Position numbers and translations under genes: made by a program. Below the pieces are notes generated by a model, which saw only the letters and a program-made list of their open reading frames with translations, did no database searches and was not told where the DNA came from. DNA of 59,063 nucleotides from Aestuariivirgaceae bacterium (GTDB lineage Bacteria > Pseudomonadota > Alphaproteobacteria > Rhizobiales > Aestuariivirgaceae), in assembly GCA_036746875.1 (NCBI GenBank), contig DAIODI010000001.1:1-59063 (forward strand), written 5' to 3'. Numbering within the stretch: position 1 is the stretch's first letter; every line of letters begins with the position of its first letter. Positions 20,101 through 56,462 of this stretch are shown piece after piece.

Positions 20101-21831
20101 GAGCTGCACGGCCATGCCGGCCGAAGCCTGGTCGAGGTAACTGGCCAGCTCCTGGCGGGCATGGCTGACGTTTTCGACGAACCGGCCCGACACCTCGACC
20201 AGGCGGTCGGAGAGGACGGCGCCGGTCTGCTCGACGCGCCGGGCGAACGTCTCGCTTGAACTTTCCAGCTTGTCGATCTGGGCGTTGAGTCCGGCGGCGC
20301 TTTGGGCGAGCTGCGCCCCGACCGCGCCGGCGGCCTGCTCGAGGCGGCCGAAAAGCTGCGTGGCGGTGCGGTCGAGCTCGGAGGACGTCTCCTGCGACTT
20401 TTGCCCCATGCGCGAAAACAGCGAAGCGGTGGTCGAGTCAAGCTGCGCCGTCATCGCCTGCGACGCCTGCTCCATGTACTGGTGCAGGTCGTCGCGGGCC
20501 CGTGCGACGTTCTGGACGAACTCGCCGGACGCCGACAGCAGGCGCTCCGACAGCTGGAGGCCCGTGCCTTCGATCTGCGCGGTGACGCGCTCGGTGGACC
20601 TCGCCATGGTCTCGGCGGCCTCGCCGGACGTGGCCTTGAGCAGATAGGCGGCGCTGTTGGCTGCCCCCTGGACCATCTCGTTGACCTGCGCGCCGGTGGT
20701 GCGCAGCGCCTCCGACAGCCCGGCGGTCATCCGCTCGACCTGGCGGGCGACATCGGCATTGACGGCGTTCAACTCGCCCGCGCCCTGCCGCAACTGACCG
20801 ACGACCGAGGCTTCAAGCCCCTTCACATGGTCGCTGAACTGCGCGCTCTCGGCTCGCAGCGCCTGGGTGGTCGCGGCGAGGTGTTCGATCCGTGAGCCGA
20901 GCGCTTCGGCGACCAGGCGCGCCTCGCCGTCGAGCGCGCCGGCGGCCTGGCCGATGCGCGCCACCTGCTCCCCGAGGCCGCTGGACGCCGCAGCCGCCCG
21001 GTTCGACAGCTCGTCCATGGTGCGGGCGAGTTCGTAAGTGGAGCCCTTCAGCCCCTGTTCAAGCGTGACGAGCGCCGAGGAGGCGTTGCCGATCACCGCC
21101 TCGAGGTGGGTGGTGTTCTCCATCAGCCGGCCGAGCAGCGGATTGGCCTCGCTTCCGAACACGGCGCCGGCCTCGTGCAACGCATTTCGCTGGTGCTCCA
21201 GTCCGGCGAGCAGGGAGCGGATGCGCTCCTCGTTGGCGCCGAACGCACGCTCGATGTTGGCGACCTCGCGATGCACCATGCCTTCGAGCTCGGCGGCGCG
21301 GCTGACCGCATGTTCGACCCCGCCGACGAGCTGTTCGATCTCGCCGCGCACGGTGGCGGCGATTGTCGTCAGCCCTTCGGTGGCGACGTCCTGCGGGCGG
21401 ATCAGACGCAGCGCCGTCTGCACCAGCGCTTCCGAAACGTTCTGAATCTGCTGGGCGCGCCACAGCAGGTAGGCGGCCGACCAAATGAGCAGGATCGGCA
21501 GCAGCAGCGCCATCAGCGCCACCGCCAGCGCCGGCGCCCCGGCCTGTTCGACCGCCGCCGGTTGCAGGCGGAACATCAGGAACGTGCAAAGCCCGATCCA
21601 CAGCAGCGAGGCCATGAAGGCGGCCCAGAACGGCGCGGCGGACGGGCGGCGGCGCAGACTGGCGACAAGCGCGGCCCCGCTCATCTCGTTTTCGTTGGCG
21701 GCGCGCGGCCGAGGTATCGGCGACCCTTCGGCCCCGACGCGGATCTCCGGTTCACGCCGGGCGGCGGCGCGGTCTTCCCGCCGGGTGGCCCGCCGCGGTC
21801 CGCGTCTCGTCTCGTTAGCTTCAATCGCCAT
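17164..21831 (-). CDS. 1555-aa membrane-anchored coiled-coil protein with an 11-residue repeat array (GPR/RgsE-like)
   Basis: Two predicted TM segments at about aa 66-88 and 100-124. About 35 tandem 11-mers of the type RLESTTSALGS / RLDETTRTLAG at about aa 600-985. Non-repetitive C-terminal domain. Confidence 0.8.
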   Translation of the reverse strand: MAIEANETRRGPRRATRREDRAAARREPEIRVGAEGSPIPRPRAANENEMSGAALVASLRRRPSAAPFWAAFMASLLWIGLCTFLMFRLQPAAVEQAGAPALAVALMALLLPILLIWSAAYLLWRAQQIQNVSEALVQTALRLIRPQDVATEGLTTIAATVRGEIEQLVGGVEHAVSRAAELEGMVHREVANIERAFGANEERIRSLLAGLEHQRNALHEAGAVFGSEANPLLGRLMENTTHLEAVIGNASSALVTLEQGLKGSTYELARTMDELSNRAAAASSGLGEQVARIGQAAGALDGEARLVAEALGSRIEHLAATTQALRAESAQFSDHVKGLEASVVGQLRQGAGELNAVNADVARQVERMTAGLSEALRTTGAQVNEMVQGAANSAAYLLKATSGEAAETMARSTERVTAQIEGTGLQLSERLLSASGEFVQNVARARDDLHQYMEQASQAMTAQLDSTTASLFSRMGQKSQETSSELDRTATQLFGRLEQAAGAVGAQLAQSAAGLNAQIDKLESSSETFARRVEQTGAVLSDRLVEVSGRFVENVSHARQELASYLDQASAGMAVQLDSTTERLFSSLGQRTSAMSAELDRVTAGVFERVEKATGDLTANLSAQTQSVTSEIEQTSGGLITRLESVTARMSDLLDIASDQMTTRLESTTEQLATRLDSASGTMTSRLDDTALKLAEQLDHTARDVAERLESTSSQVTGYFAEASSGLAERLETTSASLLQALETAAADTSVRLDETTGRLTSRLEDVTGLLAERLESTTSALGSQLDQTSGALTSRLNDAASTLSGRLDETTRTLAGQLEETRLSLVGNLDKTSNTLLSELDLATSALATRLDETTNRLALQLDTVAGEITGRLEETTARVDQTTGDVTGRLAETSARLGDVLDTTTSRIATQIDDVSTRLDTTTTRLAGKLETTSANLSGRLEEMASKLSSELDRTSARLHKNLEDHSGQMAERFASTSSEIVQKLSSSGETMFIRIDAASRELGKRFDVATSMLEEITTEVIGKMDGTGEGFVRALDERTLRMAEELGKARSDFVNALDQRSGVIIEELGRARNAFSQGLDGAREEIVAELDKASSTFVTSLEMSVTSSGRRLDEAGLKFSDHVSRASSLLSGKLGEAAQDLDGRLETVSTELTGRLEQTGLRLSSRLQEVSTSVDRSIDRFNTEIEQLVHSREDILAGLLEQLGKRHAEVDATMRAYAATISDRLGQAEQRTEEIGRLFVSQTDAASQNLQDEIRRLEQVSDKAVAAAARTLQSQHERLMASINQAIAATAGEFSETAKELHATAQQVVREVDFVRNELKRAILELPEETRQNADAMRRVVSDQITALNALADVVRRQTGTLGLAGPGVFTPRREGASPGKAEGAASETPQERTSGARGSKDKRSSGPALEVVAGGGDSGETGDPLEGASREAETLVAKLNAASRDLVEAMEGKLPADLEQRYAAGDRKAYIHHLFARRGASFSRQAKTRYASERMIRGRIDAYVRLFERLLDAISESEDGSVLVDACLASESGKVYLLLSQAAGREVRDRD

Positions 21832-35415: not shown

Positions 35416-36057
35416 GTGGCGGTGGTGTCCTCGTTCGGCGCGGAGTCCGCCGTGCTCCTGCACATGGTGGCGGAAGTCGACGCTTCGCTGCCGGTGATCT
35501 TTCTCGACACGGAGAAACACTTCCGGGAGACGCGCCGTTATCGCTCCATCCTCGCCGACCGGCTGGGGCTGAAGGACGTGCGCACCATCCATCCGGACCC
35601 GAGCGATCTGGCCCGCAGCGACCCGGCGGGCGACCTGCACGGCCGCGATCCCGACCTGTGCTGCCACATCCGCAAGTCGCTGCCGCTGGAGCGCGCGCTC
35701 GCCGGGTTCGATGCGGTGATCTTCGGCCGCAAGCGTTTCCACGGCGCGGCCCGCGCGGCGCTCCAGACGATGAGCCACGACGGCGGCCGCTTGAAGGTGG
35801 AGCCGCTCGCCGGGTTCACCGCCGACGACCTCAGGGCCTACATGGCGGCGCACGATCTGCCGGCGCATCCGCTCACCGGACGCGGCTACCGGTCCATCGG
35901 CTGCGCACCCTGCACGGTGGCGGGCGGGACCGACGAAGACCCGCGCGCCGGGCGCTGGGCGGGCACCGGCAAAACCGAGTGCGGCATCCACATCACCTCC
36001 GGTGGCGCGCTGGTGCGGACGATCGCGCGCGACGGCGCGGTCACGGCGCCAAACTGA
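35416..36057 (+). CDS. cysH: phosphoadenylyl-sulfate/adenylyl-sulfate reductase (CysH); 5' end unresolved
   Basis: SSFGAESAVLLHM, a CC pair and CAPC (the Fe-S type seen in APS reductases). In-frame homology (DEAFAGLEGADLIRAVAAGHPGK) extends upstream to about 35344 with no ATG, GTG or TTG start codon in that frame. Confidence 0.85.
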   Translation: MAVVSSFGAESAVLLHMVAEVDASLPVIFLDTEKHFRETRRYRSILADRLGLKDVRTIHPDPSDLARSDPAGDLHGRDPDLCCHIRKSLPLERALAGFDAVIFGRKRFHGAARAALQTMSHDGGRLKVEPLAGFTADDLRAYMAAHDLPAHPLTGRGYRSIGCAPCTVAGGTDEDPRAGRWAGTGKTECGIHITSGGALVRTIARDGAVTAPN

Positions 36058-36673
36058 TGATCACCTCGTTGCGCCGGAGAAATCCGGGCGTCCACGGATC
36101 ATTATAGTAGGCGTAGGTCGCCGGGCCGCTGGCGGTGAGCCCTTGCGCCGCAATCCAGCCCCGCAACTCCGCCTCGCGGGCCTTCAAGGCCGCATCGGTG
36201 GCGACGCCGGAGAAGCGGATGGCGGCGCGCCGCTGCGGCGCGACCTCGGTGAGCCTGACATCGCCGCCGGGGGCCGGAAGTTCCGCCAGCGTATACGCCG
36301 CCGGCATGATGAACCGTATGGTCCAGCGGCTGGCGCCGCCGGCGCTCTCCTGCGTCACGGGTGCGGTCATGGCGATCGCCTCCGGCTCCTGCGTCACGGG
36401 TGCGGTCATGGCGATGTCGCCGCCGCCCCGGTTTCTGGCGAAGATATAGGCGGCAAGCGCCCGGAAGCCCTGGCGGACGGCTTCCCAGCGCTCACCCTCG
36501 CGGGTGACTTCGGCCACGACCATTCCCGGGTATTGGCGGACCTCGATATCGGCGCCCGCGGCGCGCCCGGTTACGGTGTAGGCCGGCGTCTCGATGGAGG
36601 TGGTGAACCACCACCAGCCGAAGACGGCGGCGGCGGCGAGCGCCGCCAGCGTGAGGAGGGCGTAAACGGCCAT
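36041..36673 (-). CDS. SOUL heme-binding family protein, membrane-anchored or secreted
   Basis: ETPAYTV, IAMTAPV (twice), RFIMP and YNDPWTPGFLRRNEV. ATG at 36673 (MAVYALLTLAALAAAAVF) preferred over 36724. Confidence 0.85.
   Translation of the reverse strand: MAVYALLTLAALAAAAVFGWWWFTTSIETPAYTVTGRAAGADIEVRQYPGMVVAEVTREGERWEAVRQGFRALAAYIFARNRGGGDIAMTAPVTQEPEAIAMTAPVTQESAGGASRWTIRFIMPAAYTLAELPAPGGDVRLTEVAPQRRAAIRFSGVATDAALKAREAELRGWIAAQGLTASGPATYAYYNDPWTPGFLRRNEVIISLAP
36347..36424. repeat. In-frame 39-bp tandem duplication inside the SOUL gene
   Basis: CTCCTGCGTCACGGGTGCGGTCATGGCGAT occurs at 36347-36376 and again at 36386-36415. It encodes IAMTAPVTQE twice. Confidence 0.85.
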
Positions 36674-36837
36674 GCGCAATCCCCGGTTCGGGCGGCGGGC
36701 GGGTGGGGAAACAGCGTCTGTCATGGGGAGGGTTACGCACCGGCGATCGCCGGGGATCGCCGGCGGGCGTCTTGTGCGCGCGGGCGAGGCTCCTGTAGAG
36801 GGGAGAACATTGTCCGACCGTTCCCGGAGCGCTGGCC

Positions 36838-43758: not shown

Positions 43759-44094
43759 ATGAAACATCTGATTGCGCTGGCGCTCGTCGCAGCGTCCACG
43801 GTGGCCGCTCAGGCGACCGAACTCCGTCCGATCGAGGCCGCATCCATCGAGCTGGGGCCGGTGAAGGGCGTCGCCTACTACGATCTTCGGGGCAGCGAGT
43901 GCCACCTCGTGGCGACACTGGCGCAGGGCGAGGGCCTGCCGGTGCGGTTTTCTTCCATACTTGCGCCGCAAGAGCGGATCAGCATTTCCGTGCCGGGTCC
44001 GGCTGGCGCCGCCGCGCAGGAAATCGTCTTCACCCGCCGTGGCGATTCGGTGGTGGTGAGCGGTCCGCAGCCGGTGCGGTCGCTGAACAACTGA
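43759..44094 (+). CDS. hypothetical secreted protein (111 aa)
   Basis: Signal peptide MKHLIALALVAASTVAAQA. The only plus-strand gene in a 14-kb minus-strand run. Confidence 0.55.
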   Translation: MKHLIALALVAASTVAAQATELRPIEAASIELGPVKGVAYYDLRGSECHLVATLAQGEGLPVRFSSILAPQERISISVPGPAGAAAQEIVFTRRGDSVVVSGPQPVRSLNN

Positions 44095-44100
44095 GGGCGT

Positions 44101-45204
44101 TCAGGCCTTCTTCTCCTCCGCCGCTTCGGCGGGGGAGAAATCGGCGATGCGTTGCAGCACATCCGAGAGGCCGGGCTTCTCGCGGCTGAGCCACGGCAGC
44201 GGCCGGCACACATCCAGCGCGGCGAGGCCGATGCGCGCGGTCATGATCCCGTTGACCGCGCCTTCCCCGAAACGCGCCGAGAGCCGGCCGAGGAGACCGC
44301 GTCCCAGCACGTGCTGCGTCAGGCTGTCGGTGAGCGCGACGCCGCCGGTGACGGCGAGGTGCCCCACCACCATTCGGGCGAGGCGGAACGTGCCGAGCGT
44401 GCCCGGCCGGCCGCCGTAGAGCGTCGCCAGCTCGTTCAGCATGCGGAGATTCTGGGCGGCGACGAACAGGATATCGAGAGCCGGCGTCGGCAGCAGCGCG
44501 GTGGTGAGCGTGACGCGCCGCGACGCGCGCGTGATGATGCGGGTCGCCGCGTCGTCGAGCTTCGACACCACGTCGCGCTCGGCGAGCCGGATGCGGTCGG
44601 CGGGGTCCATGATGTCGCCGGCGTGCCTGTCGAGCGCGGCGAGGCCGGCGGAGAGATCGCCGCGGCCGCGATACAGGCGCTTCAGGTGCCGCACCGCTTC
44701 GCCTGCCGCCTTCGCGTCGTTGGCGGTGATGGCGCGCGCCGCGTCCTCCTGGATCGAGCCCAGCGCATGGAGGCGGATCAGGCCGTAGATTTCCCGCCCC
44801 ATGATCCCTGCGACGGCGAACGCAAACGCCGCCGCCAGCGCCGCGCCGAACCATCCCGCGGCGGCGGAGCGGGCGAACAGCGCCTCGATGAACTGCGAGA
44901 CCGAAAGCGAAAACCACAGCGCTACAAGCGAAAAACCGCTGGTGAGGAGCAGGCTTCCCCAGCGCATGGTCTGCGAAAGCGCCGCCGGGGAGACCGGCGG
45001 TTCGGCGGGAACGAGCGGGGCCGGCGGCTCGTCCGGCTCCATCACGATATCCGGCGCAGGCCCGGCGCGCGGCCTGCGGGGCTTGCCCGCCGCGGGGCGC
45101 GCCTCGGGCATTGCCTCAGGCTCTGAGGCGGCCTCAGCTGCGCGCTGCGCGTGCGGCGCGGGGCCGATGCGAAACGCTTGCGGGCGGCGCGGCTCGTCGC
45201 TCAT
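44101..45204 (-). CDS. ycjF: YcjF-family membrane protein (UPF0283/DUF697)
   Basis: TM pair after a Pro-rich N-terminus. LNELATLYGGRPG...VNGIMTARIGLAA. ATGA overlap with the ycjX stop. Confidence 0.85.
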   Translation of the reverse strand: MSDEPRRPQAFRIGPAPHAQRAAEAASEPEAMPEARPAAGKPRRPRAGPAPDIVMEPDEPPAPLVPAEPPVSPAALSQTMRWGSLLLTSGFSLVALWFSLSVSQFIEALFARSAAAGWFGAALAAAFAFAVAGIMGREIYGLIRLHALGSIQEDAARAITANDAKAAGEAVRHLKRLYRGRGDLSAGLAALDRHAGDIMDPADRIRLAERDVVSKLDDAATRIITRASRRVTLTTALLPTPALDILFVAAQNLRMLNELATLYGGRPGTLGTFRLARMVVGHLAVTGGVALTDSLTQHVLGRGLLGRLSARFGEGAVNGIMTARIGLAALDVCRPLPWLSREKPGLSDVLQRIADFSPAEAAEEKKA

Positions 45205-46646
45205 GTGAACTTGTCGCCGAACAGGAACTCGATGGTGCGATCGAGCCTGATATGGGGAAACGACGGGCTTTGCACCAGCGGCGGCTTCGCCTCGATCAGC
45301 GGCGGGCGGAACCGAACGAACCGGATCGAGCCTGCGAGCGAGGCGTCGAGGGCGCGGGCGGGATCGGCCGGCAGGTCGCCGGGGAAGATCGCCGCTTCGG
45401 TGCGGCCGTCGAAGGTTTCCCCGCCGATGGTCTCGCCTCCTTGCGGCACGCCGACGATACAGGGCAGCGACTCGCCGCCCTGCCTCACGGTCGCCTCGCG
45501 CGTCGCCCGGATGGCGGCGATGGCGGCGACGTCCACGGCCGCGCCGGAGAACTGCGCCCGCTTCACCGCGCCCTCCACGATGAGGCGCAAGATCGCCTCC
45601 AGCCGGTCGTGGCTGGTGTGATGCAGGAGATCGGCCTTGGTGGCGGCGAACAGGATGCGGTCGATCCTGCGGCCGAAGAGCGACGACGCCCAGCTGTTCG
45701 CGCCCTGGCGAAAGCAGGCGAGCACCGCGGTGAGCGCTGCCGAGAGATCGGCGACGGCGGACGGCCCGGCGTTGAGCGCGGTCAGCACGTCGGCGAGCAC
45801 GATCTGCCGGTCGAGACGGGCGAAGTGACTGTAGAAGAACGGCCGCACCACGTGGGCGACATAACTGTCGTAGCGCCGCCGCATCATCGCGTGCAGGGAG
45901 CCGCGCGGGGGCGAGGCGTCCGGCGTCACGTCGAGCGGCGCAAACGTGAGCAGCGGCGAGCCCTCGAGATCGCCGGGCATCAGGAACCGGCCCGGCGGCA
46001 ACGACGACATGGACACCGCCTCGGCGCGGCAGCGGGCGAGATAGGCGGTGAAGAGGCGCGCCGCCTCCTGCGCCGCAAGTTCGCTCGCCGCCGCGTCCGG
46101 ATCGAGCGAGGCGAGGTGCTCGCGCCATTCGCCCGCCAGCGCCGCCCGCGGCGCGGCGCGGCTCTGGGCGACGGTCGCGTGCGACCACGCCTCGAAGGTC
46201 ATGGTCATCAGCGGCAGGTCGAGCAGCCATTCGCCGGGATAGTCCACGATGTCGATGTGGAGCGCGCCGCCGTGGGTGTTGCGCGCGATCACGCCACGGG
46301 CGGCGTATTCGACGGTGAGACGAAGCTCCGACAGCCGCCGGGTGCTCTCCGGCCAGCGTCGGTTGTCGCCCTTGAGCGACTGCACATGCTCCTCCCAGGC
46401 GAAGCGCGGCAGCTCGTCGTGGAGTTGCGGTTCGAGGTAGGCGCGGGCGATGCGTCCTTGCGCGTAGGCGTTGAACAGCGGCAGCCGCCCGCCGCCCAGC
46501 AGGGCGTGGACGAGGGCGGTGATGAACACGGTCTTGCCCGACCGCGACAGGCCGGTGACGCCCAGCCGCACGCCCGGCGACACGAGCCCCGCGAACAGGT
46601 CGCCGACGCCGCCCAGCGCCACCCGCGTTTCGTCGAGGAACCCCAC
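45201..46646 (-). CDS. ycjX: YcjX-like P-loop NTPase
   Basis: GVTGLSRSGKTVFITALVHAL Walker A and DYPGEWLLDLPL. GTG start. Confidence 0.88.
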   Translation of the reverse strand: MGFLDETRVALGGVGDLFAGLVSPGVRLGVTGLSRSGKTVFITALVHALLGGGRLPLFNAYAQGRIARAYLEPQLHDELPRFAWEEHVQSLKGDNRRWPESTRRLSELRLTVEYAARGVIARNTHGGALHIDIVDYPGEWLLDLPLMTMTFEAWSHATVAQSRAAPRAALAGEWREHLASLDPDAAASELAAQEAARLFTAYLARCRAEAVSMSSLPPGRFLMPGDLEGSPLLTFAPLDVTPDASPPRGSLHAMMRRRYDSYVAHVVRPFFYSHFARLDRQIVLADVLTALNAGPSAVADLSAALTAVLACFRQGANSWASSLFGRRIDRILFAATKADLLHHTSHDRLEAILRLIVEGAVKRAQFSGAAVDVAAIAAIRATREATVRQGGESLPCIVGVPQGGETIGGETFDGRTEAAIFPGDLPADPARALDASLAGSIRFVRFRPPLIEAKPPLVQSPSFPHIRLDRTIEFLFGDKFT

Positions 46647-46661
46647 GCAGGCCCCTGCCCG

Positions 46662-47186
46662 TCAGTCGCCGGCGAGCGCGCGCGGCCGCACGAAGGCGGC
46701 GAGCGTGCAGCGGGCGGGATCGAGGCCGGACCAGGCGGGCGCGTCCACGTCGAACACGGCGAGCCCGGCGGTGGGAAACTTGCGGCGGATCGCGGCGATG
46801 GCGTCGGGCGGCCCCGATCGGGCAAGCCGGATGGCGAGGAACTCCATCGACGGGTTGTGTCCGACGATCATCAGCGTACGCGCCTCGCCGCCGCGGGCGC
46901 GGATCACGTCGAGGAGGGCGTCGCCGCCGCCGAAGTCGTACACGGCCTCGTCGTAGATCACCTCCGGCGACAACCGGGCGGCGTCGAGCGCCAGATCGAG
47001 GGTGCGGCGCGTGCGCTCGGCCGGCGAGCAGACGACGCGGTCTGGCAGCCAGCCCATCCGCCTCAGATGCCGCCCGACGATCGGCGCGGCCTCGTTGCCG
47101 CGCCTGCTGAGCGGGCGGTCGCGGTCGTCGAGACCGGTCTCGGCCCAGCTCGACTTGGCGTGACGCAGCAGGAGAAGGCGCAGCAT
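46662..47186 (-). CDS. sixA: histidine phosphatase family protein (SixA-like)
   Basis: LLLLRHAKS (RHG-type motif) and VGHNP. Confidence 0.85.
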   Translation of the reverse strand: MLRLLLLRHAKSSWAETGLDDRDRPLSRRGNEAAPIVGRHLRRMGWLPDRVVCSPAERTRRTLDLALDAARLSPEVIYDEAVYDFGGGDALLDVIRARGGEARTLMIVGHNPSMEFLAIRLARSGPPDAIAAIRRKFPTAGLAVFDVDAPAWSGLDPARCTLAAFVRPRALAGD

Positions 47187-47272
47187 CGGCGAGGCTCGCG
47201 GGAAGGGATGTCGCCGTTGAGGATGGCCGCCCCCGGCGGCGGGCGCAAGCGCGGCGTGCGGGCGGCGGCGCC

Positions 47273-48196
47273 TCAGCGTCTGCGGCCGATCAGTCCGGGA
47301 TCGAACGGCACGGTCTGGTAGACCTGGTTGATCCAGTTGCCGAACAGCAGGTGCGCATGGCTGCGCCAGCGGTTTTCCGGCGGCATCGCGGGGTCGTCGT
47401 GGGGAAAGTAGTTGGCGGGGAGCAGGATCGGCTTGCCGGCGTTGACGTCGCGGAAGTACTCCTCGCCGAGCGTCGCGGTGTCGTACTCGATGTGGTTGAA
47501 CATGTAGAGCGAGCGGTGGCGCGCGTCGGAGACGAGACAGAGGCCCGCCTCGTCTGACTCCATCAGCACCTCAAGGCCCGGCGCATCGGGGAGGTCGGCG
47601 CGGCGCACCTCGGTCCAGCGCGAGACGGGGATCGAGAAGTCGTCGGAGAAGCCGCGCAGGTACGGCGAGGCCGGATTGAGGTTGCGGTGGCGGTAGACGC
47701 CGAACGCCTTGCGGGGCAACGGGTGTTTCGGCACGCCGTGGTGATGGTAGATCGCGGCCTGCGCGCCCCAGCAGATACAGAAGGTGGAATGGACGTTGGT
47801 CTGCGTCCAGTCGAACACCTCGGCGAGTTCGTTCCAGTAGGTGACGTCCTCGAAGTCGAGGAGTTCGACCGGCGCCCCGGTGACGATGAACCCGTCGAAA
47901 CGCTCGCCGCGCACCTCGGCGAAATCGCTGTAGAAGGCGAGCATGTGCTCGGCCGATGTGTTCTTCGGCGTGTGATGGGTCATCTTGACCAGCGTCAGCT
48001 CGACCTGCAGCGGCGTCGCCCCGCACAGCCGCGCGAACTGCGTCTCGGTGCGGATCTTGTCGGGCATCAGGTTGAGCAGCCCGATGCGCAGGGGACGGAT
48101 GTCCTGGCGCACGGCGTCGTCCTCGGCCATCAGCATCACGCCCTCGCGTTCGAGGGTCTTTCGGGCCGGAAGGTCTCCGGGAATCTTGATCGGCAT
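47273..48196 (-). CDS. metA: homoserine O-acyltransferase, MetA family
   Basis: [11 protein letters not shown]..., [19 protein letters not shown] and CWGAQAA motifs. Confidence 0.92.
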
Positions 48197-48213
48197 CGGT
48201 TGGTTCCCGGGGG

Positions 48214-49080
48214 TCAGCGCGGCGCCTGGTCGATGGCGCGGCAGACGAGGTCGAGGAACGAGGCTTCGTCGGCGACGTGGGGGATGTCCTCCATCTCCAC
48301 CGTGTAACCGTAGCGGCGCGCAATTCCCTCGTAGAGCGGAATGCGGTGGTGCAGGAGTTGCTCGAAGCCCCACACGGCGAAGGCGTCCGGGTTCACGTCG
48401 TCGTCGGCGGCCACGCCGGCCGCCGCCTTATACTCGCGCCACTTCGCGTCGAGGAATTGCGGCTGGTAGTACATCGGCTTGGGCGACAGGCGGAACCGGT
48501 CGACGAGCTTGCGGGCGTGGCCGGGCGCGCCGCGGATGTAGAGCAGCAGCGTGCTCTCGGCGAGGCTGTTGAGCACCGGATCGCCGCCATCGGACAGGTT
48601 GACCACCTCGCACAGCGAGCCGCCGGAATCGCAGATGAAGTGCTGGTAGCGGTAGATATCGCGCGACTTCCCGATGAACAGCGGCACGTCGAGCAGCGCG
48701 GCGATCTCGGCCTGGCGGTGCTGGGCCTGGCGGCGCTTGTACTCGGCGAACGGGATGCCGCCCTGGCCGGGATCGCCGGGCTTGCCGAGGTAGGTGGACA
48801 GCGGGTCGAGGTTGTCGAAGGAGATGTTGGAGGAGATGTAGATCGAATCGGTGCGCAGCAGGTCGCGCAGGAACGGGTTCTTCATCGCCTCGCGCTTGAA
48901 GTTGTCGGCGATGTATTCGCCCATGTAGCGGGTGCCGATGCGGTAATCGACCGAGTAGTTGAACCAGTCGTGCCGGCGCAGCGTTCTGGCGAGCGTGGTC
49001 TTTCCCACCCCGGACATGCCGAAGATGGTGACCGCCTTCGACGGCCAGGCCCGGAATTCGCGCGAGGAGGTGAACTTCAT
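48214..49080 (-). CDS. P-loop ATPase of unknown function
   Basis: [12 protein letters not shown] Walker A. 17 nt upstream of metA. Confidence 0.75.
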
Positions 49081-49135
49081 GGCGGCAGACCAATAGCCCA
49101 AGCGCGCCGCCGGCGCAAAGCCGCGGGCGGACCGT

Positions 49136-50545
49136 TCAGAACTGGCGGGTGATGGTGAGGCTCGCGCCGTGGGCGTAGTAGTCGCCGAACGGGGTGTTCG
49201 ACCACGCCTGGGTGTAAGTGTACTCGAGTTGCGGCGCGAAGCCCCAGAAGTCCCAGTCGCGCTTGGTCAGGGTGGCGCGGCCGTCGAAGATCAGGTCGTC
49301 GCGCGGTTCGTCCATGAACGGATAGTCGCCATCGTAGAAGGCGCGCCGCAGACGGCCCTCGGCGTACAGGCTGAGCCCGTAGGAGAATTCGTGATAGGCG
49401 GCCAGCCCGCCGCCCGCGCTCCAGCTGGCGAGGTGATCGTATACGGCGGTGGTCCGGTCGAGCCCGCCCAGCGCGTAGAACACGGTGGAGGGCGACCACG
49501 CCCACGACACCTGCCCGCCGGCGGCGGCAAGCCATCCGCTCCGGTAATCGGCGTTCTGATAGGATGTGGGACCGGCCCGCACCCGAAGATAGCCGCCGGT
49601 GCGTGGTGAGAAGCGCTGCTTGATGGTCGCCTGCATCCCGGCGAACAGCTGAAGCTCGTCCGCGCCGATGAACCGCTGCTGGGTGAGGCCGCCGAGCCAG
49701 ACCTCGGTCCCGTCCTTCCTGCGGCGCAGCTCGATGATCTGCGACACCAGGGTGTCGTCGAAGTTCTCGCCCTGATAATCCGTGTACGTCACACCTACCG
49801 CTCCGACCAGGGTGAGGCCGGGGCCGAGCGGCGTGCTCCATGAGCCGTCAACCCCGCCGCGCACGCCGATGCCGCTTTTCTCGCGGCTGTCGCCATCCAC
49901 CTTGAAGGGCAGGCCGCCGATCCAGATGATGTCGTTGCTGGTGCCGTTGTTGAAGTTGGTCGAGGGCGCGATCGACGCCCAGACCGAGAACTGCCACGGC
50001 CGGCGATCGTCGATGGCGTCGAGGAAGCCGTTGAAGGTGCGCGCAAGCTCGGGCGTCGGCGCGGCGCCGATGAGCAGCTCGTACTGGAAGCGGGCGGCGT
50101 CGTCGTCCTCGAGCAGGAACAGCGTGTGGGCGAGCTCGGCGCGCACCAGCGTCAGGCCGGGATCGCTGGCGAGCGCAGCGCGGTACTTCGCCGCTGCGCC
50201 CTTGAGGTCGCCGTTCGCCTTCAGGATCAGGCCCTCGACGAACAGCGTGCGGTTGGCGGCGTAGGGTCCGGTGAACGGATACATGGCGAGAAGCTTCTGC
50301 GCCGCGGCCACGTCGCCGTCGCGGGGCAGGGCGATCAGCAGGTGCAGGCGGGCGGCGTCGTCGAGCGTGGAGAGATCGACGGGGCGGCGCGGATCGCCCG
50401 TCGCCGGCGCTGCTTCTGCATCGGCCTTCGGCGTCGCCGCCGCTTCCTGTTGCGGAGCGGACGCGGCGGCCTGCGCCGGGGCGGGCGCGAGGGCGGCGAC
50501 CATCCCGGCGAGGAAGATCGCAAACCACCGTCCCGTCCATTTCAC
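49136..50545 (-). CDS. surface lipoprotein assembly modifier (Slam; TPR-like N-terminus plus DUF560 outer-membrane barrel)
   Basis: Signal peptide, then an Ala-rich helical region. The C-terminal 300 aa show alternating beta-strand patterns and end in TITRQF (terminal aromatic). GTGA overlap with the upstream lipoprotein gene. Confidence 0.8.
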   Translation of the reverse strand: MKWTGRWFAIFLAGMVAALAPAPAQAAASAPQQEAAATPKADAEAAPATGDPRRPVDLSTLDDAARLHLLIALPRDGDVAAAQKLLAMYPFTGPYAANRTLFVEGLILKANGDLKGAAAKYRAALASDPGLTLVRAELAHTLFLLEDDDAARFQYELLIGAAPTPELARTFNGFLDAIDDRRPWQFSVWASIAPSTNFNNGTSNDIIWIGGLPFKVDGDSREKSGIGVRGGVDGSWSTPLGPGLTLVGAVGVTYTDYQGENFDDTLVSQIIELRRRKDGTEVWLGGLTQQRFIGADELQLFAGMQATIKQRFSPRTGGYLRVRAGPTSYQNADYRSGWLAAAGGQVSWAWSPSTVFYALGGLDRTTAVYDHLASWSAGGGLAAYHEFSYGLSLYAEGRLRRAFYDGDYPFMDEPRDDLIFDGRATLTKRDWDFWGFAPQLEYTYTQAWSNTPFGDYYAHGASLTITRQF

Positions 50546-51633
50546 TGCTTCGTTCCGTGGAAGAATCCCTTGATGTCGACGAAGCCGCGCCTGTCATCGT
50601 TGATCGCGGTGTCGCCGCCGCTGGGATTCACGCTGACCGCGAAGTTGGTGAACACCCCGGTGATCTCGTTGGCGTTGGGTCCGAATACGACGCCATACAG
50701 CGGATTCTCGTTGTTGAGTTCGCCGCCGACGCCGGGCTGGCAGGCGCCGCGGCAGGTGATGCCGGTGATCGTGTTTCCGTCGATCGTGCCCACCAGATCG
50801 TTGGTGACCTGGATGATCGGCGCATAGACCGGCAGCAGATCGCTGGATACATTGGGGGTCGGGTCGCGCTCGGCATTGGGGCGATCGAAATAGCCGAAGT
50901 ACGTTCTGCCTTCGCCGAATGTCTCCCAATACGTCGGTGTCAGCGTGCCCCTGAAGGTCGCCGCGGTGAAGTTCGCCGTCATCGTCGCGTTGCCGGAGAT
51001 TCGGTAGTCGCCATTCAGGGTGTAGGGGGCACTTGAAGATGGCTCCACGAAGCCCCTGTTGTTCTGGTCGATGGTCCACCTCCCGGCGTACGTCGCCGAG
51101 CCGGTTTGCGTCGCGGTGGTGCGGTCGCCGTTGAAGAACCAGGCGCTGCCGTTGTTGGTCACGTCGCGGAACTGGGCGGCGTAGCTGTGGGGGTACTGCC
51201 AGTACTGCAGTTCCGCATCCGAGGAGTTGGTGATGCGGCGGTATTCGGTGTAGTTGGAGCCGAGCGTCAAATCCGGATTGGGCGGCTGTCGCAGGTAAAG
51301 GTTCAGCCGGTATGGACCCTTGAAGCCGAGCTGTTGCTTCGGGTCCACGAAGACTTCGGCCCTTTCCTGATCGGTCCCCTTGTTTGTGAAGCGTACGGCC
51401 GCGAGGCCGGGGCTGAACGTCGACCGTCCGCTGTCGTTGAAGACGAGCGCCAGATCGCCATTGGTCAGATTGGTGTTGTTGCCGCCGCCGCCGCCGTCTG
51501 TCGGCGGCTTCAATCCGTCATCGCCGCCGCCGCCGCCGCCGCCGCCAGACACCAGCCTGTCGGGCGAGGATGCGCAACCGGCGCCGGCCAGCGCCAGCGC
51601 GATCGAAAGAACCAACGGGGACAAACGACGCAT
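50542..51633 (-). CDS. TbpB-fold (C-lobe handle/barrel type) lipoprotein, candidate Slam substrate
   Basis: Lipobox LAGAGC and a poly-Gly tether. SATYAGRW, ANFTAATFRGTL, GTIDGNTITG, LYGVVFGPNANEITGVF, and a terminal KGFFHGTKQ. Confidence 0.75.
   Translation of the reverse strand: MRRLSPLVLSIALALAGAGCASSPDRLVSGGGGGGGGDDGLKPPTDGGGGGNNTNLTNGDLALVFNDSGRSTFSPGLAAVRFTNKGTDQERAEVFVDPKQQLGFKGPYRLNLYLRQPPNPDLTLGSNYTEYRRITNSSDAELQYWQYPHSYAAQFRDVTNNGSAWFFNGDRTTATQTGSATYAGRWTIDQNNRGFVEPSSSAPYTLNGDYRISGNATMTANFTAATFRGTLTPTYWETFGEGRTYFGYFDRPNAERDPTPNVSSDLLPVYAPIIQVTNDLVGTIDGNTITGITCRGACQPGVGGELNNENPLYGVVFGPNANEITGVFTNFAVSVNPSGGDTAINDDRRGFVDIKGFFHGTKQ
51523..51546. repeat. (GCC)8 trinucleotide tract encoding the Gly8 tether of the lipoprotein
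   Basis: Eight perfect GCC units. A second (GCC)5 tract lies at 51481-51495. Confidence 0.9.
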
Positions 51634-51722
51634 CGACCCGGACCTCGTCTCGCCACAAGTTGCGATGGACCGATCATGCTTCGTTAAGGTTAAAATTGCC
51701 TGAAGTGATGGTTGACCAAAGG

Positions 51723-52568
51723 TTAACGCTGCTCGCGCCGGGCCATGAAGGCGAGGCGCTCGAACAGCGAAACGTCCTGTTCGTTCTTCAGCAGCGCGCC
51801 GTGCAGCGGCGGGATCACCTTGCGCGGGTCGCGCTCACGCAGCGTTTCCGGCGCGATGTCCTCCGCCATCAGCAGTTTCAGCCAGTCGAGCAGTTCTGAG
51901 GTGGAGGGCTTCTTTTTCAGGCCCGGCACGTCGCGCACCTGATAGAAAATGTTCAGCGCCTCCCCGACGAGCCGCTGCTTGATGCCGGGGAAGTGCACCT
52001 CGACGATCTCACGCATCGTGTCGGGGTCGGGAAAACGGATGTAATGAAAGAAGCAGCGGCGCAGGAACGCATCCGGCAGCTCCTTTTCGTTGTTGGAGGT
52101 GATTATGACCACCGGGCGGCGCGCCGCCTTCACCGTCTCGCCGGTCTCGTAGACAAAGAACTCCATGCGGTCGAGCTCGCGCAGCAGGTCGTTGGGGAAC
52201 TCGATGTCGGCCTTGTCGATCTCGTCGATCAGCAGCACCGGGCGTTGCGAGTGGGAGAACGCCTCCCACAGCTTGCCGCGGCGGATGTAGTTGGAGATGT
52301 CCTTAACCCGCGGATCCCCAAGCTGGCTGTCGCGCAGGCGGTTCACCGCATCGTACTCGTAAAGGCCATGCTGAGCCTTGGTGGTGGACTTTACATGCCA
52401 TTCAATGAGCGGCGCGTCGATGGCGCGGGCGACCTCGTGCGCCAACACCGTCTTGCCGGTGCCCGGCTCGCCCTTCACGAGCAACGGCCGCTCCAGAACG
52501 ATGGCGGCGTTGACCGCCACCTTGAGATCACTGGTCGCGACGTAGTCGCTGGTCCCCTCGAAACGCAC
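51723..52568 (-). CDS. MoxR-family AAA+ ATPase (CoxD-like)
   Basis: LVKGEPGTGKT Walker A and LLIDEIDKA Walker B. GTG start preceded by GGGGAGG. Confidence 0.92.
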   Translation of the reverse strand: MRFEGTSDYVATSDLKVAVNAAIVLERPLLVKGEPGTGKTVLAHEVARAIDAPLIEWHVKSTTKAQHGLYEYDAVNRLRDSQLGDPRVKDISNYIRRGKLWEAFSHSQRPVLLIDEIDKADIEFPNDLLRELDRMEFFVYETGETVKAARRPVVIITSNNEKELPDAFLRRCFFHYIRFPDPDTMREIVEVHFPGIKQRLVGEALNIFYQVRDVPGLKKKPSTSELLDWLKLLMAEDIAPETLRERDPRKVIPPLHGALLKNEQDVSLFERLAFMARREQR

Positions 52569-52730
52569 AGTCAGCCTCCCCGCCGCCGGACAAGGCGAAC
52601 CTCTTAACGCAACCGCGCCCGCCCGGCCAACGGTCTTGCTGCAACCGTCTCGCCAATGTCACCGAATCCTGCGACAGGGCGCTCCACGGAAAGGGCGCCC
52701 GGCACGGCGGGAGCCTGTCGCCAACAAGCC

Positions 52731-52759
52731 TTGTGGAGCGGAACGGTGGCCGATATATA
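52731..52759 (+). promoter_or_regulatory. candidate sigma-70-type promoter of dksA
   Basis: TTGTGG-N17-TATATA, about 45 nt upstream of the dksA ATG. Confidence 0.3.
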
Positions 52760-52802
52760 CGCGCCCGATTTATCCAGGAGCCGACGCCTTGGAGTTGCTC
52801 GA

Positions 52803-53231
52803 ATGACGAAGTCGACCGCCCCCGTCCTGGACGAAACCTACGTGCCTTCCGAGGAAGAGCCGTTCATGAACGAGCGTCATCGCGAGTACTTCCGCCAGAA
52901 GCTGCTGCGCTGGAAGGACGATATTCTCCGCGAGAGCCGCGAGACGCTGATCAGTCTCCAGGACGAAAACAACGTCCTCCCCGACCTTGCCGACCGGGCT
53001 TCGACCGAAACCGACCGGGCGCTGGAGCTGCGCACCCGCGACCGCCAGCGCAAGCTGATCTCGAAGATCGAATCGGCGCTGAAGCGGATCGAGGAGGGCA
53101 CCTACGGCTACTGCGAGGAGACCGGCGAGCCGATCAACCTGCGCCGCCTCGACGCCCGGCCCATCGCCACGCTGTCGATCGAGGCGCAGGAGCGCCATGA
53201 GCGGCGCGAGAAGGTTTACCGCGAGGACTGA
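52803..53231 (+). CDS. dksA: RNA polymerase-binding transcription factor DksA (single-Cys form)
   Basis: DRASTETDRALELRTRDRQRKLI coiled-coil tip with DxxDxA-like acidic residues. YGYCEETGEPI replaces the CxxC...CxxC zinc finger. Confidence 0.92.
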   Translation: MTKSTAPVLDETYVPSEEEPFMNERHREYFRQKLLRWKDDILRESRETLISLQDENNVLPDLADRASTETDRALELRTRDRQRKLISKIESALKRIEEGTYGYCEETGEPINLRRLDARPIATLSIEAQERHERREKVYRED

Positions 53232-53764
53232 CCGGGTTCGCTGCTGTCCCAGTCTTCCCGGGCGTCGGCGGTTTCGGACAGGCGCGGCTCAACGGCCTTT
53301 GTGGCCAACGACCCTGAGCGGAGACCGCGGTCGCCGAACACCGCCGGCCGCGGCGTGACCGGGGCGGTCCGAAGCGCGGGCGAGTGCAACGGTGTCTCAG
53401 GCGCCGCCGGCTGCGCAGCGGGCCGGGCGAGTTCGGGTTCCGGAGGGCGGTTGTCCAGCGCCGGGGCCAGCCGGTTGCGGCGCGGCGGTTCGCCGATGCT
53501 GTCTCCCGGTCCGACGATGCCGGTTTCACCCACGAGGTCGCGATCGCCGCCGATCAGTAGCAGGTGCTCCATGCCGTCGCGGCGGATCAGCACCAGGCGG
53601 CGCTCCTTGTCGAGTTCGTAGTATTCGCTGACCGAAAGGCGGGAGCCCCTGCGGCCGCGGACGCGCTTCTGGAACATGCCGAGCACCAGGAACAGCAGCA
53701 GGAGCGCCAGCAGCAGGACGGCCGCGGTGACGATCCAGGGCAGGTAGGCGTTGACGTCGGCCAT
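53216..53764 (-). CDS. FliO-like single-pass membrane protein (hypothetical)
   Basis: MADVNAYLPWIVTAAVLLLALLLLFLVLGMF followed by RRLVLIRRDGMEHLLLIGG and a Pro-rich tail. Overlaps the dksA 3' end by 16 nt. Confidence 0.55.
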   Translation of the reverse strand: MADVNAYLPWIVTAAVLLLALLLLFLVLGMFQKRVRGRRGSRLSVSEYYELDKERRLVLIRRDGMEHLLLIGGDRDLVGETGIVGPGDSIGEPPRRNRLAPALDNRPPEPELARPAAQPAAPETPLHSPALRTAPVTPRPAVFGDRGLRSGSLATKAVEPRLSETADAREDWDSSEPGQSSR

Positions 53765-53906
53765 GGGGGGATCCTCGGGAGCGGCGATTGGCGCAAACAA
53801 GCGCACGGGAGTGCTTAAGTTTGCGTCACGACCATGGCCGAAGCGGGGCCTTGTTCGCGCTATTCTGCCGGTCTGCGCCGATGATCGCCTATACTGGCCG
53901 CCGGAG

Positions 53907-56462
53907 ATGATTCGAGCGGGGCGGATGCAGGGCGGCGCACTGGACCGACAGATCGAGGAGGGCAGCGCCGTGAAAGCGGACGTACCGGGCGGCGTGGCGC
54001 GCGCTGCGCTCACCCTGGTGGCGGCGGCGCTGGCGGCGGTGAACGTGGCGCTGCTCGCCCGCCTCGCCGAGCCTCGCGTCGGGCTGGCGGCGGCGCTGGC
54101 GCTGGGCGCGCTGGCGCTCGGCGGCGCGCTGGCGCTGGTCGCCTGGGCGACGGGCTTTCTCCGGCGCGGGCAGGCCGGTGCCGAGAGCGGGTTGCTCAAC
54201 CCGATGGCCGACGCGATCGGCGACCCCATGGTCGTCACCGACGCTCGCGGCCGCGCCGTGTTCGCAAACCGGGCGTTCCGGGCGCTTGTCGAAGCCGGCG
54301 GCCATGGCCGGCTGATCGGGGTGGAGAACCTCTACGCCGGCTACCCCGATGCGGCCGACAAGGTGTACCGCCTGTCGCAGGCCGCCCGCGAGGGCCGGGC
54401 GGCGGAGGAAGAGCTGCGACTGTCGCCGGGCTCCGGCGCGCCGCTGTCGCGGACCGCGAAGACCTCGTGGATCGCCGCAAGGGTGACGCCGGTGGCGGCG
54501 CCGGGCGGGCCGTATTCGCTGTGGCGGCTTGTCGACACCACCGACGAGCGCGACCGGCAGGAAGCGGCGTTCAGCCATCTCCAGTACATCATCAACTACC
54601 TCGATCACGCTCCGGCCGGTTTCTTCTCCACCCAGCCCGACGGGCAGATCGCCTACGTCAACGCCACGCTCGCCGGCTGGCTGGGGCTTGACCTCGCGCA
54701 GACCACCGACGGCGCGCTGACGCTCGACGACATCGTCGGAGCGGACGGCGCCAAGCTGATCTCGCGCATCGAGGCCGCGCCGGGCGGCGTCAGGGTCGAG
54801 ACCTTCGACATCGATCTTGAGGCCAAGACCGGACGCACGGTGCCGGTGCGGATCATCCACCGCGCCGACTTCGCCGCCACGGGCGAGCCGCAGCCGTCGC
54901 GCTCGCTGGTCCTGGACCGGCTCGCCCACGACAGCGACCGGGAGTCGGCCGAGGCCGAGTCGAGGATCGCCCGGCTGATCAACAACGCGCCCATCGGCAT
55001 CGTGCAGGTGGCGCGCGACGGAACCATCGCGAGCTTCAACACCGCGTTCGCCGCAATGGCGCAGCGGGCGGCGCGCGGCGCGCGGCTGGGGCAGGCGATC
55101 CATCCCGATCATGCGGCCGCCGTGGCCGAAGCCATCACGCGGGCCTTCGCCGGAGCGCCGCCGGGCGAGCCGCTCGACGTCGCCTTCGGCGGCGACCGCA
55201 GCCACTCGGCGCAGCTGGTCTTCGGGCGCGTCGCGCCAGGCGAGGACGAGGCGCTCACCGTCTACGCCATCGACACCACGCAGCACGCCTCCCTTGAGGT
55301 GCAGCTCGCCCAGAGCCGCAAGATGCTGGCGATCGGCCAGCTGGCCGGCGGCATCGCGCACGACTTCAACAACGTGCTGACCGCGATCATCGGCTTTTCC
55401 GACCTGCTGCTCGCGCGCCACAAGCCGACCGACCCGTCGTTCGCCGACATCATGAACATCAAGCAGAACGCCAACCGGGCGGCGAACCTGGTGCGCCAGC
55501 TGCTGGCGTTCTCGCGCCGCCAGACGCTGCGGCCGGAGGTGACCTCGCTCACCGACATCGTCTCCGACCTTGGCAACCTGCTCGGCCGGCTGCTGGGCGA
55601 GAAGATCGAACTCAAGATCGTGCACGGGCGCGACGTGGGTCTCGTGAAGGTGGACGTGAACCAGTTCGAACAGGTGATCATCAACCTCGCGGTCAACGCC
55701 CGCGACGCCATGCCGAACGGCGGCGCGCTCGTCATCCGCACCCACAACGTCGATCTCGAGGAGTCGCGGCAGCTGCGCCCCGGCCTTGTGCCGCCGGGCG
55801 ACTACGTGCTGTGCGAGGTGGAGGACACCGGCGCCGGCATGCCGCCGGAGGTGCTGGAGAAGATCTTCGAGCCGTTCTTCACCACCAAGGAGGTGGGCAA
55901 GGGCACCGGGCTCGGGCTCGCCACCGTCTACGGCATCATCAAGCAGACCGGCGGCTTCGTGTTCTGCGACAGCGAGGTGGGCAAGGGAACCACCTTCCGC
56001 ATCTATCTGCCGCGCCACGCCGAAGCCGAGCGCAAGGGGCCGCCGGCGGCGGCGCCGGAGCCGGCGAAGGAGGCGAAGCCCGCCGACCTCACCGGCAAGG
56101 GCACGATCCTGCTGGTCGAGGACGAGGATGCGGTGCGCTCGTTCGCCTCGCGGGCGCTGCAATCGCGCGGCTACACGGTGCTCACCGCCGAGACCGGCGA
56201 GCGGGCGCTCGCCATCGTGGAAGAACGGGGCGGCGAGATCGACCTTGTGCTCTCCGACGTGGTGATGCCCGAGATGGACGGCCCGACGCTGCTCAAGGAG
56301 ATGCGGAAGCGCGGCCACACGACGCGCGTGGTGTTCATCTCCGGCTACGCCGAGGACGCCTTCGAGAAGAACCTCGAAGGCGCGACCGACTTCGCCTTCC
56401 TGCCCAAGCCGTTCACGCTGAAGCAGCTCGCCGAGGCGGTGAAGCAGGCGATGAACGGCTGA
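53907..56462 (+). CDS. cckA: cell-cycle hybrid histidine kinase CckA
   Basis: TM pair, PAS regions, H-box [15 protein letters not shown] and G boxes, and a C-terminal receiver ([10 protein letters not shown]...[14 protein letters not shown]). The start is uncertain: ATG at 53907 or 53925. Confidence 0.88.

Follow-up and report, generated by a model that had tools for sequence, protein, structure and literature searches.

This report concerns two adjacent minus-strand genes in a 59,063-nucleotide (nt) stretch of DNA from an Aestuariivirgaceae bacterium (assembly GCA_036746875.1, contig DAIODI010000001.1). The whole stretch is called the window below. One gene encodes an outer-membrane protein of the Slam family, the translocon of the type XI secretion system (T11SS), and the other encodes a predicted surface lipoprotein that would be its cargo. 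A sequence-only reading had proposed this pairing, and the Pfam matches, the AlphaFold2 (AF2) models and the Foldseek comparisons agree with it. The same reading had suggested that the pair may be horizontally acquired, a proposal that did not hold. Here we describe the two proteins, the locus and its relatives, and weigh what the pair may do.

A lipoprotein gene and a Slam gene on the minus strand

The features of the pair are as follows; all are on the minus strand.

50542..51633 (-): cargo gene, a 363-aa predicted Slam/T11SS-dependent surface lipoprotein of a single lobe (handle/pedestal plus TbpB_B_D barrel); from the open reading frame (ORF), Pfam, AF2 and Foldseek
51574..51633 (-): signal peptide and lipobox of the cargo, residues 1-20, with predicted lipidated Cys20 and Ala at position +2; PS51257 pattern
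51466..51573 (-): Gly-rich disordered tether, residues 21-56, with runs of eight (G8) and five (G5) glycines; from the sequence and a predicted local distance difference test score (pLDDT) below 50 for residues 1-56
51274..51465 (-): N-terminal four-strand β region, residues 57-120, the variable 'effector'; strands at residues 60-66, 76-83, 91-96 and 108-114
51118..51273 (-): four-strand 'pedestal', residues 121-172, the most conserved stretch; strands at residues 127-134, 139-146, 150-157 and 162-169, pLDDT about 90
50545..51117 (-): predicted C-terminal β-barrel of TbpB_B_D type, residues 173-363, with an insert at about 241-277; Pfam match over residues 177-329, and AF2
50542..50545 (-): GTGA overlap of the cargo stop codon TGA and the Slam start codon GTG; from the sequence
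49136..50545 (-): gene for the Slam / T11SS outer-membrane protein, 469 aa; Pfam, AF2 pLDDT 86.2
50468..50545 (-): probable Slam signal peptide, residues 1-26, with a putative AQA cleavage site, then a disordered Ala/Pro linker to about residue 56; from inspection, a helix at residues 4-18 and pLDDT below 50 for residues 20-54
50000..50377 (-): predicted periplasmic tetratricopeptide repeat (TPR) domain, residues 57-182, seven helices; helices within residues 63-181, matches to TPR_Slam and TPR_19
49139..49996 (-): predicted DUF560 β-barrel, residues 184-469, 14 long strands and a C-terminal Phe; DSSP on the AF2 model

Both ORFs lie at exactly the coordinates first given for them. They overlap by 4 nt at the junction AAG CAG TGA / GTG AAA TGG, and the same geometry is found in three related loci (L001, L028 and L029). 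This overlap suggests that translation of the two genes is coupled.

The lipoprotein begins with MRRLSPLVLSIALALAGAGC, and residues 10-20 (SIALALAGAGC, with Cys20 followed by Ala) fit the PROSITE rule PS51257. The G8 run occupies residues 30-37 and the G5 run residues 47-51. The lipobox, the two glycine runs and the barrel motifs that had been quoted from the sequence are all present. The pedestal carries the motif YxEYR...DxELQYW...SYAAQFR...AWFF, in which Y128, E130, R132, D139, L142, Q143, W145, Y151, R156 and W165 are invariant. In a Pfam search the protein matches TbpB_B_D (PF01298) with 34.3 bits against a cutoff of 26 (E=4e-08). The AF2 model was built from an 11-sequence alignment and has a mean pLDDT of 71.6 and a predicted template modelling (pTM) score of 0.74. 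It contains eight N-terminal strands (residues 60-169), and residues 179-362 form eight long strands and one short strand, in keeping with the C-terminal barrel foreseen in the sequence-only reading.

Comparison of this model with the PDB by Foldseek gave 50 matches at E<=1e-3, and every one of the 50 is TbpB, fHbp, hemophilin/HphA or HpuA, all known Slam cargo. The best per-target template modelling (TM) scores belong to single-lobe proteins, with fHbp reaching up to 0.58. Because of these scores and the single TbpB_B_D domain, the protein is best described as one handle-plus-barrel lobe and not as a bilobed TbpB. A profile of the cargo family, run against the PDB, found weak matches to the C-lobe barrels of TbpB and LbpB (E 4e-4 to 1.6e-3).

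The Slam protein begins with MKWTGRWFAIFLAGMVAALAPAPAQA, which is signal-peptide-like and contains no lipobox match on inspection. It ends with Phe469, a residue invariant across 41 homologues, and both the signal peptide and the terminal aromatic had been anticipated. The protein matches the full length of SlipAM (PF04575, the former DUF560; model positions 1-288 of 288, residues 184-469) with 59.9 bits against a cutoff of 22 (E=3.8e-16), and TPR_19 with 25.8 bits against a cutoff of 25. Hidden Markov model (HMM) searches of 49136-50545 and 50542-51633 therefore place the two products in SlipAM and TbpB_B_D, respectively, above curated cutoffs, and a chance match is excluded by these hits. 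The Slam-family profile found only TPR proteins in the PDB (5e-10) because no Slam structure is detectable by sequence. The AF2 model (41 sequences, pLDDT 86.2) has a barrel with pLDDT of about 85-97 and 14 long strands in residues 184-468. Its best structural matches by Foldseek are the 14-stranded OmpG (TM 0.64), CymA, and the TPR-plus-barrel exporters BcsC, PelBC and PgaA.

Slam proteins are defined by an N-terminal TPR domain and a predicted 14-stranded DUF560 barrel, and their cargo are lipoproteins in which a variable handle at the N-terminus precedes an eight-stranded barrel at the C-terminus (Hooda et al. 2017, PMC5449769). The window protein is predicted to have the 14-stranded barrel in its model, and both domain matches and the model point to the N-terminal TPR domain. 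The features of the pair match the definition of Hooda et al. 2017, since the translocon architecture, the cargo barrel and the handle are all present.

Several observations weigh against this assignment. The score of the Slam protein to TPR_Slam (PF24575), 35.2 bits, is exactly the gathering cutoff. The cargo scores only 26.6 bits (E=6e-06) against the 80-bit cutoff of NF041636, the NCBIfam equivalog 'Slam-dependent surface lipoprotein'. Single-sequence searches of the PDB with the cargo and with Slam gave only chance or TPR matches, and profile searches and Foldseek were needed for a PDB-level relationship of both proteins. The cargo model is of medium quality, its Foldseek TM-scores are moderate (0.3-0.58), and closure of the barrel and the strand count are predictions. 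No His, Cys or Met is conserved in the cargo family beyond the lipidated Cys, and no ligand-binding residues can be assigned. A promoter and terminator scan returned no promoter and no minus-strand terminator; its one plus-strand match is fewer than the shuffled sequences gave. The evidence as a whole is computational, and we infer the surface exposure and the Slam dependence of the cargo.

The NF041636 match is partial (residues 158-233) and covers the first barrel strands. Membership of the cargo in that slam_lipo family was rejected, as the score is far below the 80-bit cutoff. By its sequence matches the cargo is thus predicted to belong to the broad TbpB_B_D class and to lie outside the curated NF041636 family. 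We consider it very probable, as one joint statement that names no specific ligand, that the pair is a Slam translocon with its cargo and that it has been inherited vertically.

Proposed export of the lipoprotein and the search for a TonB-dependent partner

The lipobox and the Ala at +2 suggest a precursor that would leave the cytoplasm through Sec, receive its lipid at Cys20 and reach the outer membrane by the Lol pathway. The downstream gene, probably translationally coupled, would provide the outer-membrane component, a DUF560 barrel of 14 strands joined to a periplasmic TPR domain. By homology with Slam1 of Neisseria and Moraxella and with the T11SS of Xenorhabdus and Haemophilus, Slam would recognise the C-terminal eight-stranded TbpB_B_D barrel of the cargo and move the cargo to the cell surface. 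There it would hang on a Gly-rich tether of about 36 residues and display a single handle-plus-barrel lobe similar to those of fHbp, HpuA and hemophilin. Our best guess is that the cargo binds an extracellular ligand (a nutrient, a metal or cofactor, or an adhesion surface) and does so without a locally encoded TonB-dependent partner.

The absence of a TonB-dependent receptor from the neighbourhood had been predicted and is borne out. A Pfam scan of the 43 called genes of the window (43 of 43) found no domain of a TonB-dependent receptor, Plug, TonB, ExbB or ExbD, and there is no heme oxygenase in the window. Several ORFs and gaps without annotation gave no Pfam match. The precomputed Pfam annotation of eight related loci, each about 15-21 kb, likewise contains no TonB machinery. 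The family profiles detect one cargo and one Slam in the window. What was overstated in the sequence-only reading is the surprise, as receptors accompany only 120 of 185 Slam-lipoprotein clusters and are absent from about 35%, and free-living species with a Slam are known from every proteobacterial class (Hooda et al. 2017, PMC5449769). TonB components are also rare near the marine alphaproteobacterial 'cluster 3' T11SS, which lie in housekeeping loci (Grossman et al. 2025, PMC12282271). A receptor-less Slam locus is within the known variation. A protein of the SOUL heme-binding family is encoded at 36041-36724 on the minus strand (E=3e-44), about 12 kb from the pair, with no evidence of a link.

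The cargo could instead be a hemophore or iron-piracy receptor, similar to hemophilin/HphA, HpuA or TbpB, that feeds a TonB-dependent receptor encoded elsewhere. The structural matches include hemophilin (6om5, 7re4, 8glo), HpuA (5ee4, 9mr0) and TbpB (3hol), and most of the characterised Slam cargo serve metal or heme acquisition (PMC5449769, PMC12282271). The receptor scan spans 59 kb of the genome, and a distant receptor is compatible with its result. However, neither a heme oxygenase nor any TonB-dependent receptor, TonB or ExbBD is encoded in the window, and no TonB machinery is annotated in the eight related loci. No His is conserved in the cargo family, with H149 present in 8% and H359 in 32% of its members. 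The carriers are free-living and not host-associated, and an alphaproteobacterial cluster from non-host settings showed no association with metals or heme (Grossman et al. 2025, PMC12282271). We regard a hemophore role as unlikely, since the family lacks a conserved His, the protein carries a lipidation signal, and no receptor or heme oxygenase is nearby.

Neighbourhood, distribution and inheritance of the locus

The pair lies in a conserved gene neighbourhood. The genes around it in the window are as follows.

48214..49080 (-): 288-aa predicted cytoplasmic P-loop protein, the conserved downstream neighbour, context only; from synteny, no Pfam domain
47273..48196 (-): metA (homoserine O-acyltransferase), context only; Pfam HTS 1.7e-130, start probably at MPIKIP
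51723..52568 (-): AAA+ ATPase, 281 aa, upstream neighbour; 82-95% identity across loci
53751..56462 (+): CckA hybrid histidine kinase, two genes upstream; NCBIfam equivalog, 1002.5 bits, cutoff 1000

About 30 related loci, from Hyphomicrobiales of the Anderseniella/Aestuariivirgaceae type, were compared, and statements on synteny cover every related locus long enough to judge. The order in these loci is CckA-type kinase, DksA, (AAA ATPase or DAO oxidoreductase), cargo, Slam, P-loop protein of about 286 aa, metA, (SixA-like phosphatase), YcjX and YcjF. Cargo and Slam are adjacent in every related locus that extends far enough. The P-loop gene directly follows Slam in every locus long enough to show it, always between Slam and metA. 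Locus L031 has a wholly different upstream context, and there the cargo, Slam, P-loop and metA genes are still together. Across the loci the neighbours are 70-96% identical to the window proteins, Slam 37-93% and the cargo 30-90%. The kinase of the window passes the curated CckA equivalog threshold, and the locus is thus core-chromosome territory.

The sequence-only reading had named a P-loop protein, metA and MoxR as the flanks of the pair. The first two are as described, whereas the MoxR label of the AAA gene was rejected since AAA_3 and bpMoxR score below their cutoffs. The AAA gene reaches no NCBIfam cutoff; its best match there is MadB-like (116 bits, cutoff 475). Membership of the cargo, Slam, P-loop and AAA genes in a defence system was also rejected, as PADLOC returned only generic P-loop matches for the AAA gene. 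The P-loop protein belongs to no Pfam or NCBIfam family, has at least 7985 homologues and shows marginal similarity to shikimate kinase (1via, E=0.018). It may act as a metA-linked kinase of small molecules that has so far gone uncharacterised.

Two other features of the surroundings were recorded. The loci of the Anderseniella clade (L009 8230-10000; also L011, L013, L015, L017, L018 and L020) contain about 1.8 kb of extra DNA between the AAA gene and the cargo gene. Two small genes lie on it, one for a 177-aa membrane protein and one, on the opposite strand, for a 197-aa putative lipoprotein; neither encodes a receptor. Elsewhere in the window, positions 17164-21831 on the minus strand encode a 1555-aa protein with seven stretches of Apolipoprotein A1/A4/E repeats (PF01442, E=8e-53) and ApoLp-III-like segments. 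Such a giant protein of amphipathic-helix repeats is unusual in bacteria.

The genes from the cargo to metA may be co-transcribed, judging from their tight packing. On this basis it can be proposed that the cargo, Slam, P-loop and metA genes are one operon, in which the surface lipoprotein captures or senses cobalamin, a sulfur amino acid or some other compound connected with methionine or one-carbon metabolism. The 4-nt overlap is followed by gaps of 34-55 nt between Slam and the P-loop gene and of 17 nt between the P-loop gene and metA. The four genes stay together even in L031, where the upstream context is changed, and no minus-strand terminator was found within the block, in a scan that is uninformative. 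T11SS significantly co-occur with one-carbon metabolism, methionine synthase and folate pathways, and cobalamin uptake has been speculated upon (Grossman et al. 2025, PMC12282271). However, a gene order kept among relatives can stem from shared ancestry alone. The P-loop protein is predicted to be cytoplasmic, and its family counts at least 7985 members against 121 cargo matches, though no example without Slam was found. An Rfam scan of 44000-54000, which included the SAM-II riboswitch as a candidate for a cargo-to-metA operon, found no SAM riboswitch or other Rfam element that would link the genes, and no binding site can be proposed. We judge this distinctly unlikely. Equally a long shot is the broader proposal that the block is a single unit and that the tethered single-lobe lipoprotein is a new functional class of T11SS cargo without a TonB-dependent receptor, perhaps linked to methionine or one-carbon metabolism.

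We return to the pair as a Slam translocon with its cargo. A word-indexed search of 5.8 billion proteins found the cargo family in 11 clusters, and an exhaustive HMM search yielded 121 matches at E<=1e-3 among 1.84 billion representatives, 101 of them at E<=1e-10. Among 185,579 species, each represented by one genome, there are 20 cargo loci, the best of which encode proteins 37-41% identical to the window lipoprotein. All 20 are in metagenome-assembled genomes (MAGs) labelled Anderseniella, Aestuariivirgaceae or unclassified Alphaproteobacteria/Pseudomonadota; Anderseniella and Aestuariivirgaceae both belong to Hyphomicrobiales (NCBI taxonomy). The carriers are MAG lineages of free-living soil and aquatic bacteria. 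Slam homologues of about 35% identity, on contigs of the Aestuariivirga type, adjoin a TbpB_B_D lipoprotein of 401-448 aa that is homologous to the window cargo over its full length (BLASTP 2e-33; hhalign probability 100%). The secretion system is of a known type, and its cargo is a new family restricted to this lineage.

The 26 cargo sequences obtained from these loci each carry a lipobox. The cargo of the window lineage is the shortest, at 344-363 aa compared with 394-448 aa in other members. Still longer members of 479-572 aa keep the pedestal and the barrel and have a larger, unrelated N-terminal region; a Pfam scan of them matched the barrel only and nothing in the N-terminal region. Because the longer members swap the N-terminus and keep the rest, the N-terminal 'effector' is the variable part of the protein. 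A variable N-terminal effector is the general pattern of T11SS cargo (Grossman et al. 2025, PMC12282271).

Some relatives differ in other ways. The longer ones numbered P0165-P0204 keep the lipobox and the Gly tether, and have in addition a DADGDGIPD motif, which is calcium-binding-like, and, at the N-terminus, a novel domain of some 200 aa. In two loci the cargo is split into two ORFs (L025 6342-7505, 231+95 aa; L027 2688-3773, 245+83 aa). The first is of the Aestuariivirga type and the second contains the closest Slam relative (93% identity). A frameshift, a pseudogene or an assembly error may account for the split, and coverage of L027 is 1.6x.

The low GC content of the lipoprotein gene had prompted the suggestion of horizontal acquisition. 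The three GC values given for 60-nt lines were reproduced (53.3%, 58.3% and 73.3%). The gene as a whole has a GC content of 63.5%, the third-lowest of the 43 genes (z=-2.1), while the Slam gene is typical at 69.1%. At first codon positions (GC1) the value of 0.555 is the lowest of the 43 (z=-2.6). At third positions (GC3) it is 0.835, the fourth-lowest (z=-1.6), within the window range of 0.79-0.94 (mean 0.889, sd 0.034). The low GC content is an effect of GC1, since this is a β protein rich in Asn, Thr, Gly, Tyr and Phe. Horizontal acquisition is contradicted by the position of the pair, which is the same in all judgeable loci, and by a GC3 within the window range. That the position is kept even between cargo proteins of 30% identity points to old vertical inheritance. 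The pair is an old core-chromosome feature of the Anderseniella/Aestuariivirgaceae-type clade of Hyphomicrobiales and not a recent import.

Nonsynonymous to synonymous substitution ratios (dN/dS) were estimated by the Nei-Gojobori method. Compared with L028 and L029, its two closest relatives, the window cargo has a ratio of 0.54-0.58; that of Slam is 0.14-0.19 and that of the neighbours 0.04-0.19. Within the cargo, constraint is strongest on the pedestal, with a dN/dS of 0.13. Ten independent pairs, drawn from the Anderseniella and Aestuariivirga clades, give 0.07-0.30 for the cargo and a similar 0.05-0.38 for Slam, and the cargo evolves at about 2-5x the ratio of the housekeeping neighbours. 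Both genes are functional and under purifying selection, as judged from the low dN/dS in these ten pairs. The near-relaxed rate of the cargo is confined to the window sub-lineage, where substitutions are few, and diversifying selection as a general trait of the cargo was rejected on the values of the ten further pairs. If the cargo-to-metA block were a single unit as proposed above, the dN/dS of about 0.55 in the window sub-lineage would reflect adaptation of the cell surface.

Two further explanations fare poorly. The DUF560 protein could be a porin or an exopolysaccharide channel that translocates no lipoprotein, with the lipoprotein left facing the periplasm. The structural neighbours of the Slam model do include porins and the exporters BcsC, PelBC and PgaA, one NCBI record labels a Slam homologue 'porin family protein', and functional divergence of marine T11SS has been raised as a possibility (Grossman et al. 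2025, PMC12282271). This is nevertheless highly unlikely, as the cargo retains the barrel domain common to all Slam substrates (PMC5449769), the two genes are strictly adjacent and co-retained across the clade with a start/stop overlap, and both are under purifying selection. That the pair is a recently acquired island is scarcely credible: the gene is low in GC and GC3, the closest lipoprotein in the 185,579 species genomes is only 37-41% identical, and T11SS of Cluster 1 frequently sit on mobile islands (PMC12282271), but about 30 loci, with cargo identities of 30-90%, share one insertion site and one gene order, no integrase, transposase or tRNA gene adjoins the pair, the GC deficit of the cargo lies in GC1 with GC3 inside the window range, and the conserved AAA gene next door is equally low in GC (63.2%) beside a Slam gene of typical GC.

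Relation to characterised systems

Experimental knowledge of Slam and T11SS comes almost entirely from animal-associated Beta- and Gammaproteobacteria, in which the cargo serves complement evasion or the theft of iron or heme. The Slam1 and Slam2 proteins of Neisseria meningitidis (Hooda et al. 2016, 2017; Huynh et al. 2022) share with the window protein the combination of TPR domain and 14-strand DUF560 barrel. Their cargo fHbp, HpuA, TbpB and LbpB are, like the window cargo, lipoproteins with a handle and an eight-strand barrel, and the two window genes are adjacent as are those of Slam2 and HpuA. The best per-target TM-scores of the window cargo are to fHbp (0.45-0.58), while its identity to solved cargo structures is only 11-14%. 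The window pair differs from the N. meningitidis systems in having no receptor nearby, free-living carriers and no plausible host-protein target. TbpB and LbpB have two lobes, about 500-700 aa and an adjacent TbpA or LbpA, whereas the window cargo has one TbpB_B_D stretch, 363 aa and no receptor in the window.

The hemophilin, HphA and HrpC proteins of Haemophilus, Acinetobacter and Xenorhabdus resemble the window cargo in their handle-plus-barrel fold (6om5, 8glo and 7re4 at E ~1e-5) and in the adjacent T11SS protein. They differ in being mostly soluble proteins processed by signal peptidase I, whereas the window cargo has a lipobox. Hemophilin and HphA have a heme-coordinating His in the handle/clamp domain and an adjacent TonB-dependent receptor; the window cargo family has no conserved His, and no receptor or heme oxygenase is nearby.

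A close described counterpart is the marine 'cluster 3' T11SS of Rhodobacteraceae and Roseobacteraceae (PMC12282271). These systems are also alphaproteobacterial, not host-associated, located in a syntenic housekeeping locus and without TonB components, and they too are linked to genes of the one-carbon type of metabolism. Their cargo, a signal peptidase II (SPII) lipoprotein of 282-375 aa, has a β 'effector' at its N-terminus, a pedestal of four strands and an eight-strand barrel at its C-terminus (PMC12282271), the layout predicted for the window cargo as well. The neighbours differ, being thyX, gloA and DUF1194 in cluster 3 and cckA, dksA, the P-loop gene, metA and ycjXF here, and the order here is Hyphomicrobiales. 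An adjacent TbpB_B_D cargo is present in 8 of 145 cluster 3 loci, in contrast to essentially every locus here. The likeness is one of described features; cluster 3 is one of 10 sequence-similarity clusters.

The picture of the T11SS mechanism is unchanged by these results, which are unsurprising to the specialist. The locus is a clean, clade-wide example from free-living Hyphomicrobiales, with strict pairing of translocon and cargo, a place in the core chromosome and no TonB machinery nearby. The clade is convenient for asking what role such cargo has outside a host, and for testing the link between T11SS and one-carbon and methionine metabolism.

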